A stretch of DNA of 64,000 nt from Candidatus Dormiibacterota bacterium (lineage in GTDB: Bacteria; Chloroflexota; Dormibacteria; Aeolococcales; Aeolococcaceae), in NCBI GenBank assembly GCA_963709585.1, contig CAVPXI010000006.1, positions 96,001-160,000 on the forward strand. Direction: 5' to 3'. Under the pieces are notes generated by a model. That model was not told the origin of the DNA. It saw only the letters and a list, made by a program, of their open reading frames with translations, and did not search any database. The translations under genes were made by a program, and so were the position numbers. Shown here one piece after another: positions 3,550 to 60,900 of the stretch; within the stretch, counting starts at the first letter, position 1; each line of letters opens with the position of its first letter.

Positions 3550-5140
3550 TCACACCGTGACCGGCGGACGGTAGACCCCGAAGATCTCGCGAAGCACGCC
3601 GCACACTTCACCGACCGTGGCCTGAGCCGCAAGCGCGCTGCGCATGAGCGGCAGCAAGTTGTCAGTGCCCTGCGCACCCGCGCGCACGGCGGCGAGCGCA
3701 CGGTTCACCTCGGACGCGGAACGGGCCGCGCGCATCTTCTCGAGGCGCTCGATCTGCGCCGCTTCAAGTGTCGCGTCGATGCGCAGGATCGGCACGGTGG
3801 GTTGCGACGTCTCGGTGAACCGGTTGACGCCGACGATGACCCGTTCGCCTGCTTCAACAAGGCGCTGGTGGCGATACGCCAACTCCTGGATCTGCTGCTG
3901 GTAGAAACCGGCCTCGATCGCCGCGACGGCACCGCCCTGGTCGTCGACGCGGCTCATGAGCGCCCGCGATTCGTCCATGAGGTCGTGGGTCAGCGCTTCG
4001 ACGAGGTGTGCCCCGCCCAGCGGATCGGTGACGCTGGCGGCGCCGGTCTCGTGCCCGATCACCTGCTGGGTGCGCAGGGCGATCTCCGCCGCCTGCTCTG
4101 ACGGCAGGGCGAGCGCTTCGTCGTAGCTGTTGGTGTGCAACGACTGCGCCCCACCGCACACCGCCGCCAGCGCCTGCAGCGAGACCCGCACCACGTTGTT
4201 GAGCGGCTGTTGCGCCGTGAGCGTCGCGCCGCTTGTCTGCGCGTGGAATCGCAGCTGCAGGCTGCGTGCTTCGGTCGCGCCGAAGCGGTCGCGCATCACC
4301 TCCGCCCAGAGCGCGCGGGCGGCGCGGAACTTGGCGACCTCTTCGAAGAAGTCGTTGCTGACATTGAAGAAGAAGCTCAGCCGGGGGGCGAAGTCCTCGA
4401 CCTCAAGGCCCGCGTCGATGGCCGCCTGCACGTAGGCGATGCCGTTGCTGAGCGTGAAGGCGATCTCCTGCGGTGCGGTCGCGCCCGCCTCGCGGATGTG
4501 GTAGCCGCTGATGCTGATCGTGTTCCAGCGCGGAAGACGCTGCGCGCAGTACGCGAACGTGTCGGTGACCAGCCGCATCGAAGGTCGCGGGGGAAAGATG
4601 TACGTCCCTCGCGCGGCGTATTCCTTGAGGATGTCGTTCTGGATCGTCCCCCCGAGCGTCGTGGCGGCGATCCCCTTGCGCTCGGCCGCCAGCTCGTAGA
4701 GCAGCAGGAGCGCCGCGGCCGGCGCGTTGATGGTCATCGACGTGGTGACGCGGTCCTGCGGGATGCCGCGCATGAGCAGCTCCATGTCCTCGAGCGAGTC
4801 GATCGCGACACCGACCTTGCCGACCTCACCGTGCGCCACGGGATCGTCGCTGTCGTAACCCATCTGGGTGGGCAGGTCGAACGCCACCGACAGCCCGCTC
4901 TGTCCGGCGCGCAGCAGGTAGTGGAACCGCTGGTTGGTCTGCTCGGCGCTTCCGAAACCCGCGTACTGGCGCATCGTCCAGAGCCGCGACCGGTACCCGT
5001 CCGCGCGGATGCCCCTGGTGTACGGGTAGTCACCGGGAGGTGGCGAGCCGTCCGGCTGGTCCACGTAGAACGGTTCGAGCGGGATGCCCGAACTCGGTCT
5101 CGGCGCGGATGCCGGGCTCTGCGCCGGGGTCCTCGCTCAT
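3550..5140 (-). CDS. Methylmalonyl-CoA mutase, substrate-binding subunit (no fused B12 domain); +1 insertion at 5090-5095
   Basis: [35 protein letters not shown] motifs; removing one base restores N-terminal [11 protein letters not shown] from ATG 5140. Confidence 0.9.
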
Positions 5141-5571
5141 GCGTCCGACCCGGGGTTCTCCTGGTCGGGCTGGCACAGCTCGGTGAGCACCCCGCCTGCC
5201 GCCGAGGGATGGAGGAACGCCACCAGGCGGCCGGCGGCGCCCCGTCGTGGACAGGTGTCGAGGAGTTGGAGGCCGAGCTCGGCGAAGTGGTCGATGCTGG
5301 CCTGAACGTCGTCGACGCCGTAGGCGACGTGATGGAGGCCGCTGCCCCGCCGGGCCAGGAACCCCGCGATCTTCGACTCCGGGCCGGTGCTCCCGAGCAG
5401 CTCGATGCGCAACTCCCCCACCTCGAACATGACCGCCTCGATGCCGTCGGAGGCGACGACCTGGCGGTGCACGGGGGTGGAGCCGGTCAGGCGCTCGTAG
5501 GTCGCGATCGCGACGTCGAGGTCGGCGACGGCGATTCCCACGTGGTCGATCCTCGTGAATGCGCTCGCCAT
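5137..5571 (-). CDS. mce: Methylmalonyl-CoA epimerase
   Basis: IDHVGIAV, GLHHVAY, FLHP..GGVLTEL; operonic with mutase. Confidence 0.9.
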   Translation of the reverse strand: MASAFTRIDHVGIAVADLDVAIATYERLTGSTPVHRQVVASDGIEAVMFEVGELRIELLGSTGPESKIAGFLARRGSGLHHVAYGVDDVQASIDHFAELGLQLLDTCPRRGAAGRLVAFLHPSAAGGVLTELCQPDQENPGSDA

Positions 5572-18128: not shown

Positions 18129-18203
18129 CGGGAAGTAGCTCAGCCAGGTTAGAGTGCACGGTTCGGGACCGTGAGGTCGGGAGTTCGAATCTCCCCTTCC
18201 CGA
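18129..18203 (+). tRNA. tRNA-Pro(CGG)
   Basis: CGGGAAG/CTTCCCG acceptor, CACGG-TTCGGGA-CCGTG anticodon arm, GGGAG-TTCGAAT-CTCCC T arm; CCA not encoded. Confidence 0.95.
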
Positions 18204-18234
18204 CGGTTTCGCAACCTCGGCATCGCCTTTCCCG

Positions 18235-19292: not shown

Positions 19293-19367
19293 GGCCCCGT
19301 AGCTCAGTGGATAGAGCAGAGGTTTCCTAAACCTTGTGCGCAGGTTCGATTCCTGCCGGGGCTACCA
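19293..19367 (+). tRNA. tRNA-Arg(CCT)
   Basis: GGCCCCG/CGGGGCT acceptor, GAGGT-TTCCTAA-ACCTT anticodon arm, GCAGG-TTCGATT-CCTGC T arm, encoded CCA. Confidence 0.95.
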
Positions 19368-55350: not shown

Positions 55351-55491
55351 GCGATGAATATAGGCGCCGGGTGTTGGGAGAACGGGCGCCGACGCCGCAG
55401 CCGGCGGCACGACGCGGTGGTCCGGCGACGCGGCGACCTACACAAATCCGGGCAATGATATACTTGACGCACCGCGCGAGGGCAGCCCAGA

Positions 55492-55728
55492 ATGGCTGAT
55501 CTTGAAGGTCGCACCATTGACATTCGGGCGTTCGGAGCCATCGGCGACGGTATGGCCGACGACGGCGCGGCCATTGCCGCAGCCTTTGAAGTAGCGTTCG
55601 GAAGTGATCCTCGCGTATCAGGTCCTGCGTCACCTATCCAACCTCCAGGGGGTGACGGATGCGAGCATCCAGACGACTTGCCCCCAATGCGGGGTGGCTC
55701 TGACACTGGCGGAGGCGACGGTCGCTGA
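55492..55728 (+). pseudogene. Fragment with N-terminal motif of pectate_lyase_3/tailspike-type beta-helix proteins
   Basis: DIRAFGAIGDGMADDGAAIAAAF followed by non-homologous tail. Confidence 0.5.
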
Positions 55729-55942
55729 GGAGCGCGAAGTGACCGTCTACCGTTGCCCCAGAGACAAGGCCATCGTGATGCTGGTCACGCCGACCGGGAT
55801 CGACCCGGTTCCGGGATCGGGCTACCGTATTGGTGCCGAGGTTCTCCGCAATCCTGCGGATATCTATCTGAGCGTCGTCGGATCAGCGAACAAGGTGGGT
55901 TTCCCGGCCTCTCCCCACGCCCTCGACGGCTGGAGCCAGTAG
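55652..55942 (+). CDS. Small Cys-motif (CPQC...CPRD) IS passenger protein
   Basis: ORF ends just before transposase promoter; start uncertain. Confidence 0.6.
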   Translation: MTDASIQTTCPQCGVALTLAEATVAEEREVTVYRCPRDKAIVMLVTPTGIDPVPGSGYRIGAEVLRNPADIYLSVVGSANKVGFPASPHALDGWSQ

Positions 55943-55957
55943 CAGAATACTAGGTAC

Positions 55958-55986
55958 TTGACACACTGCTCATTAGGTAGTACACT
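55958..55986 (+). promoter_or_regulatory. Sigma70-type promoter of transposase (leaderless)
   Basis: TTGACA-17 bp-TACACT, 6 nt before ATG 55993. Confidence 0.8.
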
Positions 55987-55992
55987 CACCTT

Positions 55993-56937
55993 ATGAGTTC
56001 GGAGCGGTTCCCCACCACCCTCCTGGCGGCTGTCAGGTACTTCGAGGACGAGGCTGTGTGCCGCGAGTTCCTCGCAGGGCTGCGCTGGCCGGTCGCCGTG
56101 TCGTGCGTCTTCTGCGGCTCGGAGAAGGTCGGGCACATCGCCACGCGGGCGCTGTGGCGCTGCAAGGACTGCCGTAAGCAGTTCAGCGTCAAGAAGGGGA
56201 CGATCTTCGAGGACTCCCCAATCCCCCTCTCCAAGTGGCTGCCTGCGATCTGGCTCTATTCAGCCGGCAAGAAGGGCCGCAGCTCGCACCAGCTCGCCCG
56301 CGATCTCGGCATCACCCAGAAGTCCGCGTGGTTCATGAGCCACCGCATCCGGCTCGCCATGGAGACGGAATCCTTCGACGCGCCGTTGTCGGGTGAGGTC
56401 GAGGTGGACGAGACCATCATGGGTGGCCACGACCAGAACAAGCACTCCTACCTTCGCCGTGGCACCTGGGGCAAGCAGGTCGGGAAGGTGGCTGTCATGG
56501 GCCTCTTGGAGCGCGGCGGCGACGTGCGGGCGAAGATGGTCCCCTCGCGCACTAGCGCCCGTCTTCAAAAGGAGATCCGTAGCAACGTGGCCCTCGGCTC
56601 CATCCTGTACACCGACGCGTTCGCTTCTTACCGTCACGGGCTCGAAGCCGATTACATCCATGAGGTTATCGACCACTCCGAGGAGTACGTCCGTGGGCGT
56701 GTCCATACCAATGGCATCGAGAACTTTTGGAGCTTGTTCAAGCGCGTGATCTACGGCACCCACCATTCCGTCGAGCCTTTCCACCTTGACCGCTACCTCG
56801 ACGAAACGGTCCTTCGGTTCAACACGCGCAAGATGACCGACGCTGGTCGGTTCTCCCTTACCGCTGCTCGCACGACTGGCCGTCGCATCACCTACAAGCA
56901 ACTCACCGGGAAGCTCGAAGAAGGAGCCATCGCGTGA
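55993..56937 (+). CDS. IS1595 family transposase
   Basis: Zn ribbon CVFC..CKDC, HTH (QLARDLGITQKSAW), VEVDET, LYTD, HTNGIENFW, YLDE..RFN. Confidence 0.95.
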   Translation: MSSERFPTTLLAAVRYFEDEAVCREFLAGLRWPVAVSCVFCGSEKVGHIATRALWRCKDCRKQFSVKKGTIFEDSPIPLSKWLPAIWLYSAGKKGRSSHQLARDLGITQKSAWFMSHRIRLAMETESFDAPLSGEVEVDETIMGGHDQNKHSYLRRGTWGKQVGKVAVMGLLERGGDVRAKMVPSRTSARLQKEIRSNVALGSILYTDAFASYRHGLEADYIHEVIDHSEEYVRGRVHTNGIENFWSLFKRVIYGTHHSVEPFHLDRYLDETVLRFNTRKMTDAGRFSLTAARTTGRRITYKQLTGKLEEGAIA

Positions 56938-57101
56938 GCGCCGCCAAATCGAGGCCGCCTCCATCGCCGCCCGACGAAGGGCAGTTCAGGAGTTTCGTGA
57001 CACGGCTCCTCCGCGTGACCAAGAGCGAAATCGACGCGAAGGAAGCGACACGCAAACGTAGACCGCCGCGCAAGGGCGGTGATAAGGTCAAGCCCGACTA
57101 G
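56934..57101 (+). CDS. 55-aa basic protein coupled to transposase
   Basis: GTGA overlap; FRSFVTRLLRVTKSEIDAKE followed by basic tail. Confidence 0.65.
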   Translation: MSAAKSRPPPSPPDEGQFRSFVTRLLRVTKSEIDAKEATRKRRPPRKGGDKVKPD

Positions 57102-57116
57102 GCTTCGGCCTCGTTT

Positions 57117-57163
57117 GGAGGGACCCGGGGGGCTAGGCGCAAACCAAACCCCCGGGGCCTTCC
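57117..57163. terminator. GC-rich hairpin between convergent IS genes
   Basis: GGAGGGACCCGGGGG...CCCCCGGGGCCTTCC, ~15-bp stem; no U-tract. Confidence 0.4.
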
Positions 57164-57272
57164 TCGTATCTGGACAGATTCGCCGCATCGACCGCCCCGC
57201 GCTCCAGCGGTCTGCGAGCCAGCTAACTCATACGCGGTTCGGTTCTTCCACAGGCATCACATCGCTCCTTTG

Positions 57273-57704
57273 CTAACTCAGGTCTGCGGGCTTGGATAGC
57301 ATCTTGTTCGAGAGCTTCCAGATGCTCGGCGCCCACTGACCGTCGCCCTGGCGTTCTGCTACTAGAACGCTCTGCTTCTGAAGGTCATGGAGCGCTTGAC
57401 GCAAGGTCTCCTTTGACGCCTTGCCCTCCCTGTTGCCCCCGAGCCATCCTCTCTTGAACATCTCATTGGCAAGGTCGCTGAGCAGCCATCCACGATTGCC
57501 GCTCTCGCGAAGAACAGTAACCGCGCCCTCGCGGATGGACGGACGCGCCCCGTTGGTTGTTGGGTTCGCGTACGGGGCAGGCGGTCCCGCGTAGTCCTCC
57601 AAGCCGATTATCAGGTTCTGGATCTTCGCCGCCCGCTCATGCAGCGTGTTCAGCTCAGCTCTCAACTCAGCGAGCGCGATGGTCATATGCTCCGAGGTGG
57701 CCAT
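57273..57704 (-). CDS. Coiled-coil plus winged-helix DNA-binding protein (IS passenger)
   Basis: GGAG RBS; N-terminal heptads; SIREGAVTVLRES..LSDLANEMFKRGW..TLRQAL..IWKL wHTH pattern. Confidence 0.65.
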   Translation of the reverse strand: MATSEHMTIALAELRAELNTLHERAAKIQNLIIGLEDYAGPPAPYANPTTNGARPSIREGAVTVLRESGNRGWLLSDLANEMFKRGWLGGNREGKASKETLRQALHDLQKQSVLVAERQGDGQWAPSIWKLSNKMLSKPADLS

Positions 57705-57734
57705 TTCCTAACTCCTTGGCTAGAATGGACGAGC

Positions 57735-57803
57735 GCCCCCGTCCGGAGTTCGAACCGGAAACCCCGACCTTCGAAAGCTGGGTCCAGATCCTCTGGCGGG
57801 GGC
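57735..57803 (-). ncRNA. Non-canonical tRNA-like RNA (TCG in anticodon position)
   Basis: Acceptor GCCCCCG/CGGGGGC, D hairpin CCAG-AGGAT-CTGG, imperfect anticodon arm around TTTCGAA, T arm TCCGG-TTCGA(A)CT-CCGGA. Confidence 0.7.
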
Positions 57804-57862
57804 GCTACACATTCTGAACTCCTCCCTGTGTTCAGCGCAAGGGGGGCTGTAGGGGATACAGG

Positions 57863-57874
57863 GAACAGGCGTTC
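57863..57874. promoter_or_regulatory. LexA-type SOS box inside IS
   Basis: Perfect GAAC-AGGC-GTTC; near-identical to box at 19619-19630. Confidence 0.6.
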
Positions 57875-58121
57875 TATCACTACCCCCCATATAGCGCGAT
57901 ATGGCCCGAGTCACCCTCCCCCATAAGGGCTTTGGAACCCTACGGTGAATATGGGACTCGACGCGTGCGGTGCCCTCACACGGGTGCGTCAGGCTGAACG
58001 CTGGGGGCCGGGCAACGCCCCGGCGGACGTTCGGGGAATGTACGGCCCGATCGCCAAGAGGGTTTGAGTGGCTCGCCCGGCCCTCCCGATCAGCATAGAC
58101 AGTCGAGGCTTGCCGTGCGGG

Positions 58122-58307
58122 CTAGACCGACCCATATCGTCGGCACTCAGAGCATCGTCGTCGCCCACCCTGGCCTAGCGTCTCCCGGTGATCCTCAAGG
58201 ATCTTCTGCGCTCGCTGGCACTCGCTCCGGTCGTGGTAGACCGCGGTGGCGTCCTTCCCGTAGCGAGGGTTGTCGATGCCCGTGTGAAACGCTGGGAGGA
58301 TCGCCAT
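58122..58307 (-). CDS. 61-aa His/Cys small protein (YHD...C...CxxC)
   Basis: PAFHT..VYHDRSEC..GQGGRRRCSEC; 3 nt downstream of the 58311 ORF. Confidence 0.7.
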   Translation of the reverse strand: MAILPAFHTGIDNPRYGKDATAVYHDRSECQRAQKILEDHRETLGQGGRRRCSECRRYGSV

Positions 58308-58310
58308 GAC

Positions 58311-58451
58311 CTATATCGAAGCTTTCGGCTTAAAGATCCGCGCGCCGCACCCGACGCACTTGTGAGCAGGGCGTTCCTCGGGCGGGATCAACTCGGCTTG
58401 GTCAAAGTTCAGCGGGATGATCCGCTTGCTTCCGCACCCCGCACAGGTCAT
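58311..58451 (-). CDS. 46-aa zinc-ribbon microprotein (may start at GTG 58481)
   Basis: Manual translation MTCAGCGSKRIIPLNFDQAELIPPEERPAHKCVGCGARIFKPKASI; homologous to 8338-8517. Confidence 0.7.
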   Translation of the reverse strand: MTCAGCGSKRIIPLNFDQAELIPPEERPAHKCVGCGARIFKPKASI

Positions 58452-58648
58452 CGCTAGGCGCTTAGGGCTACGAACCGCCACAGTGTGAGGACGGTACCGG
58501 GGGAGGGAGTGGCTGTCGGTGCGCTACCGAACCCTAGGAATGGTGTGTCAACTATATCGTTGCCCAAATCCGTATACTCTCGAGAAGCCGGGATCCACCC
58601 GGTGCGGCCGGTGGGGCGACTGTCAGAGCGAACCTTTGGAGGTAGCCC

Positions 58649-59036: not shown

Positions 59037-60900
59037 GTGCCACCTCCTCTCGTGCCAGGCGAAAAGCGCCGGCCAGACATCCGCAACGTCGCGATCATCG
59101 CGCACGTCGACCACGGCAAGACGACGCTTGTCGACGCCCTGCTCAAGCAATCGCGAGTCTTCGCCGCCCACGAACAGGTCGGCGAGTTGATCATGGATTC
59201 GAACGATCTCGAGAGGGAGAAGGGAATCACGATCCTCGCCAAGACCACTTCGGTTCGCTACAACGGGGTCAAGCTCAACATCATCGACACCCCGGGCCAC
59301 GCCGACTTCGGGGGCGAGGTCGAGCGAAGTCCTTGGGATGGCGGACGGGTGCCTGTTGCTGGTCGACGCCGCCGAGGGCCCGATGCCGCAGACGCGGGTC
59401 GTGCTTCGCCAGGCGCTCGCTCTCGGCCTGCAGCCGATCATCGTGGTCAACAAGATCGACCGCACCAACGCCCAGCCGGCCGAGACGGTCGAGGCCACGC
59501 ACGACCTGCTGCTCGAGCTTGCCAAGGAGTCGTGGCAGCTGGACGCGCCGATCCTCTACACCGACGCTCGCGAGGGCACCGCGACCGCCGACCTCACGCA
59601 CGCGGGCGTCACGCTCGAGCCCCTCCTCGACGCCATCCTCGAGCACGTGCCGCCGCCCCTCGCGGACCCCGACGGCCCCCTGCAGATGCTGGTGAGCAAC
59701 CTCGACCACGACAACTGGAGCGGCCGGCTCGCGCTCGGGCGGATTCAGCGAGGCACCGTGCATCCCGGACAGAGCGTCGTCTCCTGCACGGCGTCGGGTG
59801 CGGGGCGGATCGAACGGATCGCGACGGTGCTCACCGTCGAGGCGCTCCAGCGCCTGTCGGTGGAGTTGGCGTCCGCCGGCGAGATCGTCTACCTCTCTGG
59901 ACTCGCGGCGGTTGCCATCGGCGACACCATCGCCGACGCCGAACATCCCGAGGCTTTGCCGCGCCTCGAGATCGGCGAGCCGACGCTGCGGATGCAGTTC
60001 TCGGTCAACCAGTCACCGCTCGCCGGGCGCGAGGCAACCGTGAGCAGCACGTCACGACAGCTGCGCGCGCGCCTGGAACGGGAGTTGCTGACCAACGTCG
60101 CGTTGCGGGTCGAGGACGGGCCGACCGCCGACATCTTCGACGTGAGCGGACGCGGCGAGTTGCATCTCGCGATCCTCATCGAGACGATGCGCCGCGAGGG
60201 GTATGAGTTCGAGGTGTCGCGACCGGCGGTGATCACCAAGGAGGTCGACGGCGAGCGCGTGGAACCCGTCGAGGATTGCGTCATCGACTGCTCGGCGGAC
60301 GTGGTCGGCGCCATCACCGATGCACTCGGCAGTCGCGGGGCAAAGATGACCGCGATGCGAACCGACGCCGGGGGCGGTGTGCGCCTGACCTACCACGCGC
60401 CAACTCGCGCGCTCATCGGTTTGCGCAGCCAGATCCTCACACTGACACGCGGCACCGGCGTGATGGCGACACGGCTGCTCGGCTGGGAGCGCACCTGGGC
60501 GCTGCCCACGACGACGCGCGGCGGCGTGCTCACCGCGAGCCAACCGGGAACGGCTGTCGCCTACGGGCTGGTGACCCTCCAGGAGCGAGGGCAGCCGCTG
60601 ATCGCGCCGGGCACGCCGGTCTACGAGGGCATGATCGTCGGGCTCAACCGCCGGCCTGGGGACATCCACCTCAACGTGACCAAGCAGAAGCAGAAGACCA
60701 ACATCCGGTCGTCCACCGAGGACATGACCATCCGCCTGGTACCACCACGCAAGATGTCGCTCGAGGAGTGCCTCGACTTCATCATCGACGACGAGCTCGT
60801 CGAGGTCACGCCCGTGGGCATCCGCATGCGCAAGCGCGTGCTCAACGCGGACGAGCGCAACAAGCTCCGTAAGCGCTCGATGGCGACCGAGGCCGGTTAG
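59037..60900 (+). CDS. typA: Translational GTPase TypA/BipA; +1 insertion at 59326-59331
   Basis: [54 protein letters not shown]. Confidence 0.95.

Follow-up and report, generated by a model that had tools for sequence, protein, structure and literature searches.

The locus considered here raises the question of what kind of RNA a transposon in the genome of an uncultured soil bacterium of the Candidatus Dormiibacterota carries directly in front of a gene for a winged-helix (wHTH) protein: an ordinary tRNA, the remnant of one, or a tRNA-derived RNA with a role of its own. The RNA is encoded on the minus strand of the 64,000-nt stretch of DNA that was analyzed (in the following called the window). 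A first-pass annotation had flagged the span 57705-57845 as tRNA-like; of this span the RNA itself takes up 57806-57732, while the remainder includes leader and promoter sequence. Comparison of the available copies indicates that the RNA is a selected derivative of a tRNA-Arg, that it is not an ordinary tRNA, and that it travels together with the wHTH gene as cargo of an IS1595-family transposon. This comparison rests on two complete RNA sequences (n=2), one from the window and one from a different species (G016), supplemented by partial copies of the stretch on four contigs from public environmental sequencing runs (X1-X4). The host's own genome is referred to as G000 and the closest relative searched as G033.

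Read on the minus strand, the sequence is as the first-pass annotation had given it, including the perfect acceptor and T stems, the extension of the terminal helix to 10 bp and the absence of an encoded CCA. The closing helix pairs 57806-57797 with 57741-57732, flanking bases thereby lengthening a 7-bp acceptor-like stem, and the discriminator is a G at 57734 (G73). There are no linker nucleotides 8 and 9, the acceptor stem running straight into a 4-bp D stem (CCAG/CTGG), whose 5-nt loop AGGAT (D arm 57796-57784) retains the GG. A single unpaired A (57783) separates the D arm from the anticodon hairpin (57782-57763, 20 nt). For this hairpin, a mismatched stem with a 7-nt or an 8-nt loop had been proposed: the mismatch stands, whereas the 7-nt register forms only three of five pairs, and the best pairing has 6 bp, including one A.C and one G.U pair, and an 8-nt loop, UUUCGAAG. 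A 3-nt variable loop (GTT, 57762-57760) leads into the T arm (57759-57742), which in the window has a perfect 5-bp stem and an 8-nt loop, TTCGAACT. In G016 and in X2 the T loop is 7 nt long (TTCGACT). All 12 pairs of the acceptor and T stems are standard in both complete copies, and the RNA measures 72-75 nt. Compared with a canonical tRNA, the RNA thus has the 7-bp acceptor stem and the 5-bp T stem with a 7-nt T-psi-C loop; it lacks the canonical core, that is, the two linker nucleotides 8 and 9 and a D loop of at least 7 nt with G18G19, and likewise the canonical anticodon arm with a 5-bp stem and a 7-nt loop containing U33 and R37.

An ordinary tRNA is ruled out, as the first-pass annotation had held, since both ARAGORN at default settings and the Rfam tRNA model (RF00005) reject the sequence. 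ARAGORN at default called the RNA neither in the window nor in G016, and the Rfam model found no match in the G016 copy at E<=0.1. Within the window the two tools report just two normal tRNAs, at 18129-18204 and 19293-19367. In its metazoan-mitochondrial mode, ARAGORN called both copies Arg(tcg), the window copy as a 'D-loop mtRNA-Arg(tcg)'. The closest cellular relative is the tRNA-Arg(UCU) of the host, with which the RNA shares an identical 7-bp acceptor stem and G73. Its D-loop AGGAU aligns with the GGAU in the D loop of this tRNA, the GG and the following A being kept; C35 and G36 are kept as well, and the T arm carries GGTTCGA. The GG-A of the D loop, C35, G36 and G73 are arginine identity positions according to passages of PMC9094753. 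A covariance model built from the two RNA copies (R1) scored 109.2 bits for the window and 104.7 bits for G016, and at most 33 bits elsewhere in the 117 genomes of the family; the next-best matches, at 33 bits, were ordinary tRNA-Arg(TCT) genes. Among 17 weaker loci that were checked, 15 proved to be ordinary tRNA genes (nine Arg-TCT, five Pro-TGG and one Gly) and two contained nothing; three of the loci in this check came from genomes flagged as unpublished (G336, G462 and G238). These similarities indicate that the RNA is derived from a tRNA-Arg. As for maturation, some tRNA genes of the host also lack an encoded CCA, and the host carries a gene for a CCA-adding-type enzyme. Elsewhere in the host genome, outside the window, ARAGORN reported a doubtful tRNA-Arg(tcg) of odd sequence at C4:95827-95899 and a 'tRNA-???' with a two-base anticodon at C6:54303-54372.

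The assignment to an IS1595 transposon, made earlier from the sequence, is borne out by Pfam matches of the transposase, by inverted repeats, by a target-site duplication and by an empty site in G033. The element spans 55451-58564 (3,114 bp); in G033, the sequences corresponding to window positions up to 55450 and from 58565 are contiguous and share 8 bp. Members of the IS1595 family, as described in ISfinder, have a transposase with a zinc ribbon and a DDE domain, short terminal inverted repeats and variable passengers, and an 8-bp target duplication is typical of them. The window element has a transposase with a zinc ribbon and an ISXO2-like DDE domain, terminal repeats, an 8-bp duplication and a presence/absence polymorphism. 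It therefore resembles other passenger-bearing IS1595 elements in transposase type, repeats and duplication, and differs from them in its tRNA-like passenger. A literature search on IS1595 elements with tRNA-like genes found no report, and one on tRNA-like passenger genes of insertion sequences gave nothing relevant among the top matches listed.

The G016 element occupies an unrelated site (L004 7496-11223) and is bounded by the same inverted repeats. Common to both elements are the transposase (85% nucleotide and 91% amino acid identity), a small open reading frame (ORF), the wHTH gene, the RNA and a conserved 53-nt block, while the segment between the left repeat and the transposase (55492-55942) lies outside the homology, G016 having a longer and different segment there. 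Terminal repeats of this type occur in 18 of the 117 family genomes. Two of these genomes, G383 and G495, contain related complete elements with small ORFs similar to that of the window 3′ of the transposase. These two elements have neither the wHTH gene nor the RNA. Because they carry another passenger instead, of 293-305 aa and without a Pfam match (L089 1609-2490 in G383 and L082 628-1545 in G495), the RNA and the wHTH gene are a passenger module rather than part of the transposition machinery.

That the RNA is maintained is indicated by its conservation. Between the window and G016 it is 92-94% identical, compared with ~67% of nucleotides and 58% of amino acids for the adjacent wHTH gene, and the promoter region and flanks are far more diverged than the RNA, the flanks being poorly alignable. 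The alignment of the two RNAs has 78 columns with seven differing places. Two pairs of the closing helix are changed on both sides, from G-C to A-U and from C-G to G-C (2/25 pairs), and no pair is broken, so that 96% of cells are paired compared with 22-58% when partners are slid; a pair-shuffle control was uninformative with two sequences (130/500). The remaining changes affect a single linker base, two variable-loop bases and the length of the T loop by one base. The change of the linker A to U together with that of the variable-loop UU to AA is compatible with a cloverleaf and with a rod alike and was left uncounted. The covariation of the arms that had been suggested as a check is thus present, in the closing helix only and for n=2. 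Further support is provided by the environmental contigs: X2 shows no difference in the 52 positions of 57755-57806, compared with 46 differences in 405 positions of the wHTH gene of the same organism, and by simple arithmetic the probability of 0/52 at that rate is about 0.002. X4 is identical over 57779-57806. A protein-coding cause of this conservation is excluded, because the T-loop length differs by 1 nt between the copies, which rules out a shared reading frame. The folding z-score against shuffled sequences is -2.98 for each copy. The comparisons of the copies show that the RNA is under purifying selection.

They also bear on the idea that the RNA is a decaying tRNA-Arg pseudogene that hitch-hikes with the transposon. 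Its rejection by standard tRNA finders, its shrunken D arm and its mismatched anticodon stem would fit decay, and an example of an allo-tRNA pseudogene that overlaps an ORF related to transposons is given in passages of Mukai et al. 2017 (PMC5389517). Decay would, however, not be expected to leave the RNA far better conserved than the neighboring coding gene and flanks, to produce compensatory changes in the closing helix, or to give both copies the same odd features. This explanation, already disfavored by the first-pass annotation, which had judged the intact arms to fit something better than random decay, is hence very improbable. We regard it as scarcely probable, too, that selection acts on the DNA itself, as a cruciform or as a protein-binding site for transposition or recombination. 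The sequence is indeed highly self-complementary, either strand folds about equally well (z -3.0 to -3.6), and R1 also matches the opposite strand at 32-34 bits. Nevertheless, it is the terminal repeats on which such DDE transposases act, and the RNA is ~750 bp from the nearest transposon end; in G016, the TTCGA T-loop motif and the GG of the D loop are found on the wHTH strand only. The G.U pair is likewise strand-specific, although this is offset by the A.C pair, which is a G.U pair on the other strand.

The gene that follows the RNA had been taken for a winged-helix gene, and structure prediction is compatible with this. In the AlphaFold2 (AF2) model, the 143-aa protein has a helix at residues 4-39, followed by the order helix, helix, helix, strand, strand (mean pLDDT 74). 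The best Foldseek matches are winged helices of the MarR/Fur/PadR/H1 types, all weak (E 0.012 or worse), and Pfam yields only HARE-HTH at 0.0066, below the cut-off. Relatives are rare, with 30 representatives in 1.84 billion proteins. The product is predicted to be a DNA-binding regulator of the dimer type, with a coiled coil and a winged helix. Its AAGGAG ribosome-binding site lies 17 nt past the discriminator G and 14 nt past the closing helix, and its ATG at 57704 lies 29 nt past the discriminator and 27 nt past the closing helix. Upstream of the RNA, the TTGCGC...CAGAAT element pointed out earlier is present (57840-57811), but it stays under the threshold of a promoter scan. G016 has a TTGCAT-17-GAAAGT element at the same distance. 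Next to these hexamers is a palindrome (57847-57861), at whose position G016 contains CTGTAG-N4-CTACAG despite diverged surroundings, making it a candidate operator. The 53-nt block is situated ~120 nt upstream of the RNA and is covered by the X1-X4 contigs while its flanks diverge.

The main rival to a function of the RNA in trans is a purely cis-acting role. The tRNA-derived fold could be a cis-acting leader only, which at the 5′ end of the message would cap or stabilize it, or provide a processing or insulating signal for RNase P or RNase E ('tRNA punctuation'), and would thereby set the message level of the wHTH gene, or of the transposase in IS1-type elements, the released RNA being idle. 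In both the window and G016, only a few nt separate the putative start site from the 10-bp GC-rich helix that follows, and the acceptor and T arms, which are read by RNase P, are the best kept parts of the RNA. We consider this explanation possible, though somewhat less probable than a role in trans, for reasons given below.

Profile searches with the wHTH protein gave matches in 6 of 401 genomes sampled from the phylum, 9 of 117 from the family and 9 of 374 from the class (class cut-off E<=1e-5). Twelve loci with the gene or a relative of it were inspected for a neighboring tRNA on the same strand within 300 nt. A co-oriented tRNA or clearly tRNA-like gene was present at five of them, or six when a weak candidate in G115:C6 is counted, compared with a chance expectation of ~0.1 tRNA in such windows (a rough value, from 49 tRNAs in 3.5 Mb), and seven of the twelve are in or beside an insertion sequence (IS). 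The proposed linkage to the wHTH gene is therefore supported both by these loci and by the joint presence of RNA and gene in the window and G016, where the tRNA-Arg-like RNA is upstream of the wHTH gene in IS1595-family elements with both inverted repeats. In G002 the carrier is an IS1-family element with both inverted repeats and an approximate target duplication, in the order wHTH gene, tRNA, transposase. The wHTH relative (profile E 8.8e-15) is broken by a stop, and the tRNA (Rfam 55.3 bits) has an 8-nt anticodon loop, TTTCGAAC, and a 3′ half resembling tRNA-Arg(TCT). The 8-nt loop of the window RNA, UUUCGAAN, thus recurs in a tRNA-shaped gene beside a wHTH relative. A second IS1-family element, with both inverted repeats and an 8-bp duplication (G115:C117), carries an 87-nt class-II-like tRNA (L111 4602-4688; Rfam 53 bits) with a long variable arm, a 3-bp D stem, A73, an encoded CCA and the alanine anticodon UGC, without G3:U70. 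It is a candidate for an identity-mismatched tRNA with a Leu-type body and an Ala anticodon. These cases show that, in elements of the IS1 family, irregular tRNAs are found next to homologues of the wHTH gene.

In G653, for which no mobile element was identified, a 98-nt tRNA with an 8-nt loop is called by ARAGORN at default 260 nt downstream of the gene and is not seen by Rfam. G049 and G050 have an IS1 transposase, one repeat and GC-rich hairpins that are not tRNA-shaped. In G502 the gene adjoins an IS1595 transposase fragment and no RNA was found. No mobile element was identified in G007, which has a doubtful RNA candidate, nor in G465 and G059, where the match covers the wHTH part only and no RNA was found. 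Relaxed ARAGORN calls in G007, G049 (L117), G059 and G465 were judged unconvincing. Two further observations concern the IS1 element of G002 (L112 1132-3212, locus G002:C15). A 16S rRNA gene (L104 1-888, minus) starts ~250 nt away from this element, and the transposase of the element requires a +1 shift near GGC-TCG-C-AAG (L112 2678-2687). This shift was considered as a target of a tRNA with an 8-nt loop, but decay or an assembly error is as likely, because the shift point is unfixed within ~5 codons and the neighboring wHTH gene is also broken.

For the cis-acting leader, it speaks that RNA and gene are always co-oriented and within 300 nt, that IS1-type cassettes place the RNA between the wHTH gene and the transposase, and that G049 and G050 have plain GC-rich hairpins. 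The last locus of the twelve bears on a decoy role, one of the candidate roles put forward in the first-pass annotation together with processing signal, antitoxin and integration bait. In G115:C6 (L113 ~4000-5500, minus; no mobile element identified), a tRNA-like candidate with good acceptor and T arms lies 35 nt upstream of the wHTH relative, and AbiEi and AbiEii (Pfam 8.2e-29 and 2.8e-5) come after the latter in the same orientation. AbiEii-type enzymes act on tRNA ends, and the gene order may connect these cassettes to tRNA-directed toxin systems. The RNA could be a decoy or antidote that mimics tRNA-Arg and soaks up an anticodon nuclease or a nucleotidyltransferase of the MenT/AbiEii type, shielding host or element. 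The acceptor end and the anticodon loop are conserved parts, and irregular tRNAs near toxin-antitoxin loci appear in passages of Mukai et al. (PMC5389517). On the other hand, neither the window transposon nor that of G016 has a toxin or nuclease gene, Pfam detected no toxin-like domain in those ORFs of the transposon that were scanned, where no dedicated defense-system scan was made, and the G115:C6 candidate is recovered at a relaxed ARAGORN threshold only and not matched by Rfam. Such a decoy is quite unlikely.

The explanation we favor, with a probability of roughly 0.4, is that the selected tRNA-Arg-derived RNA is co-transcribed with the regulator, freed from the transcript by tRNA-processing enzymes and functions in trans, either as an irregular tRNA or as a tRNA mimic. 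The wHTH transcript would contain the RNA in its 5′ part, from which RNase P and a 3′ endonuclease would release it, and CCA would be added. The RNA would then act as an arginine-type irregular tRNA or as a mimic of one, and the wHTH protein would bind the palindrome and thereby set the level of the RNA. A role in trans is preferred over a leader because the loops are kept to the letter, because the 8-nt loop UUUCGAAN recurs in G002 beside a wHTH relative and because the arginine identity positions are retained. A leader would account poorly for loops and an odd anticodon hairpin that are conserved letter for letter (0/52 differences in X2; only linker and variable-loop changes in G016), and a stabilizing hairpin would need no GG-A, C35, G36 or TTCGA loop. 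The decoding parts had been described as divergent: their odd shape is confirmed, but in view of the recurring loop and the kept identity positions they are not merely divergent.

Several findings weigh against a processed RNA that acts as a tRNA. There are only two full sequences, the D, T and anticodon stems are invariant between them, and the covariation backs the closing helix only. With D and T stems that never vary, it is ancestry and motifs, not covariation, that speak for the cloverleaf. The lowest-energy fold predicted for the RNA is a rod with the 3′ D strand paired to the 5′ T strand, and the best fold containing the cloverleaf is worse than the rod by 0.8 (window), 1.7 (window without the extra A) and 1.6 kcal/mol (G016). 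These energies cover secondary structure, tertiary contacts lying outside the prediction, and many genuine tRNAs mis-fold in silico too. The Rfam tRNA model was silent on the window copy, first at the gathering score and then at E<=10 on a 1-kb slice. In X3, 57750-57845 is replaced by 95 letters that are too diverged to align, so the body of the RNA differs in at least one relative. Furthermore, the missing linker and the A.C pair may not suit EF-Tu or ribosome use, the promoter hexamers are weak, and the non-tRNA hairpins that G049 and G050 have at the position of the RNA fit a purely structural cis-acting role.

In its boldest form, the idea of a trans-acting RNA would make it a functional tRNA that is charged with arginine, combines a compact core like that of tRNAPyl with an 8-nt anticodon loop, is kept repressed by the wHTH protein, and shifts the frame or otherwise miscodes at CGA/CGG-type codons. 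This is unlikely. If it were true, IS1595 and IS1 elements would spread a switchable cassette for translation sabotage or recoding, a natural mobile counterpart of engineered four-base-codon tRNAs. Charging and maturation as such are plausible by analogy, since ArgRS leans on C35, the compact core of tRNAPyl is functional and a CCA-adding-type gene is present in the host. Passages of PMC9094753 state that ArgRS depends mainly on C35 and that four-base-anticodon tRNAs are chargeable and can be toxic, and according to parts of PMC7609411 tRNAPyl, whose 5-nt D loop and short variable loop go with a long anticodon stem and a single linker nucleotide, functions in translation. Supplying a tRNA for codons in the genes of the transposon itself was also considered. 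This role is unsupported and unlikely, because CGA accounts for 0 of 47 arginine codons in the transposase, small ORF and wHTH gene of the window; in G016 it is 3 of 39. The genomic background for this comparison, taken from open frames of at least 600 codons, is unreliable.

With regard to known systems, the first-pass view that nothing similar had been described goes too far. Passages of Mukai et al. 2017 (PMC5389517) report that soil and peat bacteria have irregular tRNAs associated with transposable elements and with toxin-antitoxin loci. The RNA resembles these irregular or allo-tRNA(UAU)-type genes in its odd cloverleaf, in its soil origin and in its position beside mobile or addiction genes, as far as these are covered in the relevant passages (PMC5389517; review PMC7609411), and one passage suggests that allo-tRNA-type genes do not serve normal translation (PMC5389517). 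They differ in that allo-tRNAs, as defined by Mukai et al. 2017, have a 12-bp branch split 8/4 or 9/3 and a long variable arm, whereas the RNA described here is split 7/5 (10/5 counting flanks) and has a 3-nt variable loop, and also in its shrunken D arm, 8-nt anticodon loop, IS1595-family carrier and wHTH partner. Like tRNAPyl it has fewer than 2 nt between acceptor and D stems, a D loop of 5 nt, an anticodon stem of 6 bp and a variable loop of 3 nt; tRNAPyl, in contrast, has no G18G19 or T-psi-C and carries CUA in a 7-nt loop, as described in parts of PMC7609411, whereas GG and TTCGA are present here together with UCG in an 8-nt loop. A PylS-type synthetase, the cognate partner of tRNAPyl, is not in view here, where no search aimed at it was made.

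The 8-membered anticodon loop is common to the RNA and to +1 frameshift-suppressor or four-base-anticodon tRNAs (SufB2, sufD and engineered qtRNAs). Also alike are the Arg-type anticodon letters that ArgRS readily accepts, toxicity being possible in the four-base tRNAs according to passages of PMC9094753. The natural 8-nt-loop cases known are chromosomal mutants of normal tRNAs, whereas here the loop is conserved in a mobile gene with an abnormal core, and decoding is predicted only. Finally, tRNA-like processing modules are exemplified by mascRNA at the 3′ end of MALAT1 and by tRNA-mRNA co-transcripts. The similarity lies in acceptor/T-arm mimicry and a degenerate anticodon arm within a longer transcript; these cases are eukaryotic or chromosomal bacterial ones, while the RNA of the window is the cargo of an insertion sequence. 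It would belong to a little-understood set of transposon-borne irregular tRNAs, to which it adds an IS1595-family transposon as a new carrier, a new architecture in which a tRNA of arginine type combines a compact core with an anticodon loop of 8 nt, and a conserved protein partner, the coiled-coil wHTH gene also found beside irregular tRNAs in IS1-family elements. The small, clean two-gene cassette with its candidate operator makes the function testable. Should the RNA miscode on purpose, it would represent a natural mobile element that tampers with the genetic code.

The host genome contains a single copy of the RNA, a DNA search of 42 genomes of the genus gave real matches in two, and the covariance search of the family found two of 117 genomes above 100 bits. 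Three further DNA matches in the genus are pieces of 19-34 nt, of which only that in G034 was read, and an alignment-based search for related loci recovered only the G016 contig. Among viral contigs, a first pattern had no match and a second one chance match within coding sequence; among metagenome contigs, a 24-letter core gave no match, and a loop-only pattern hit seven loci, all of them chance matches in coding sequence and none matched by R1. A tblastn search of plasmids and phages with the wHTH protein yielded no match. The features of the element are listed in Table 1. The pieces that make up the right-hand mosaic segment may stem from related elements, either as remnants or as MITE-like derivatives.

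Table 1. Features of the transposon and its flanks, in window coordinates.
Feature	Position	Strand	Basis or remark
Left target-site duplication CAAATCCG, 8 bp	55443-55450		Present once at the G033 empty site; flanks the insert in the window
Left terminal inverted repeat, 23 bp	55451-55473	+	20/23 against the reverse complement of 58542-58564; bounds the G016 copy too
Pectate-lyase-like N-terminal fragment	55492-55728		PF12708, weak (E 0.03)
DUF6510-like zinc-ribbon passenger ORF, 112 aa	55604-55942	+	Pfam PF20120, E 4.2e-6
IS1595-family transposase, 314 aa	55993-56937	+	PF12762 DDE_Tnp_IS1595 4.6e-38; PF12760 Zn_ribbon_IS1595 1.3e-11
Small ORF overlapping the transposase stop (GTGA)	56934-57101	+	tblastn 68% over 38 aa in G016 and G006
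Coiled-coil and winged-helix gene, 143 aa	57273-57704	-	AF2, Foldseek
AAGGAG ribosome-binding site of the wHTH gene	57712-57717	-	Sequence reading
tRNA-Arg-derived tRNA-like RNA, 75 nt	57732-57806	-	Cloverleaf core 57803-57734
Promoter-like TTGCGC-18 nt-CAGAAT	57811-57840	-	Sequence reading; below promoter-scan threshold
Palindrome CTGTA-N5-TACAG, candidate operator	57847-57861		Adjoins the putative -35
Conserved 53-nt block	57923-57975		85% identical to G016; 26-nt core 57941-57966 identical
Right-hand mosaic segment, ~560 bp	57984-58541		Pieces at 71-83% on G000 contigs C13, C14 and C15 and in many genus genomes
Right terminal inverted repeat	58542-58564	-	Pairs with the left repeat
Right target-site duplication	58565-58572		Junction reading against G033

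The extra A in the T loop of the window copy had been proposed to be an insertion error whose removal restores a 7-nt loop, and this is in line with its absence from G016 and X2. Because these copies lack it and because the BipA gene has a one-base insertion at a similar site, the A is probably an error of the assembly. Compared with pooled loci of relatives, the genome as a whole contains GACTC slightly less often and GAACTC slightly more often. In the BipA case, the window has one extra base relative to G033 at 59320-59335, GCGAAGTCC compared with GCG-GGTCC, which is probably an assembly insertion of the same kind as the T-loop A, at a GA-N-TC-like (GA-A-GTC) site. The BipA/TypA gene itself is found in two frames (59037-60206 and 59338-60900).

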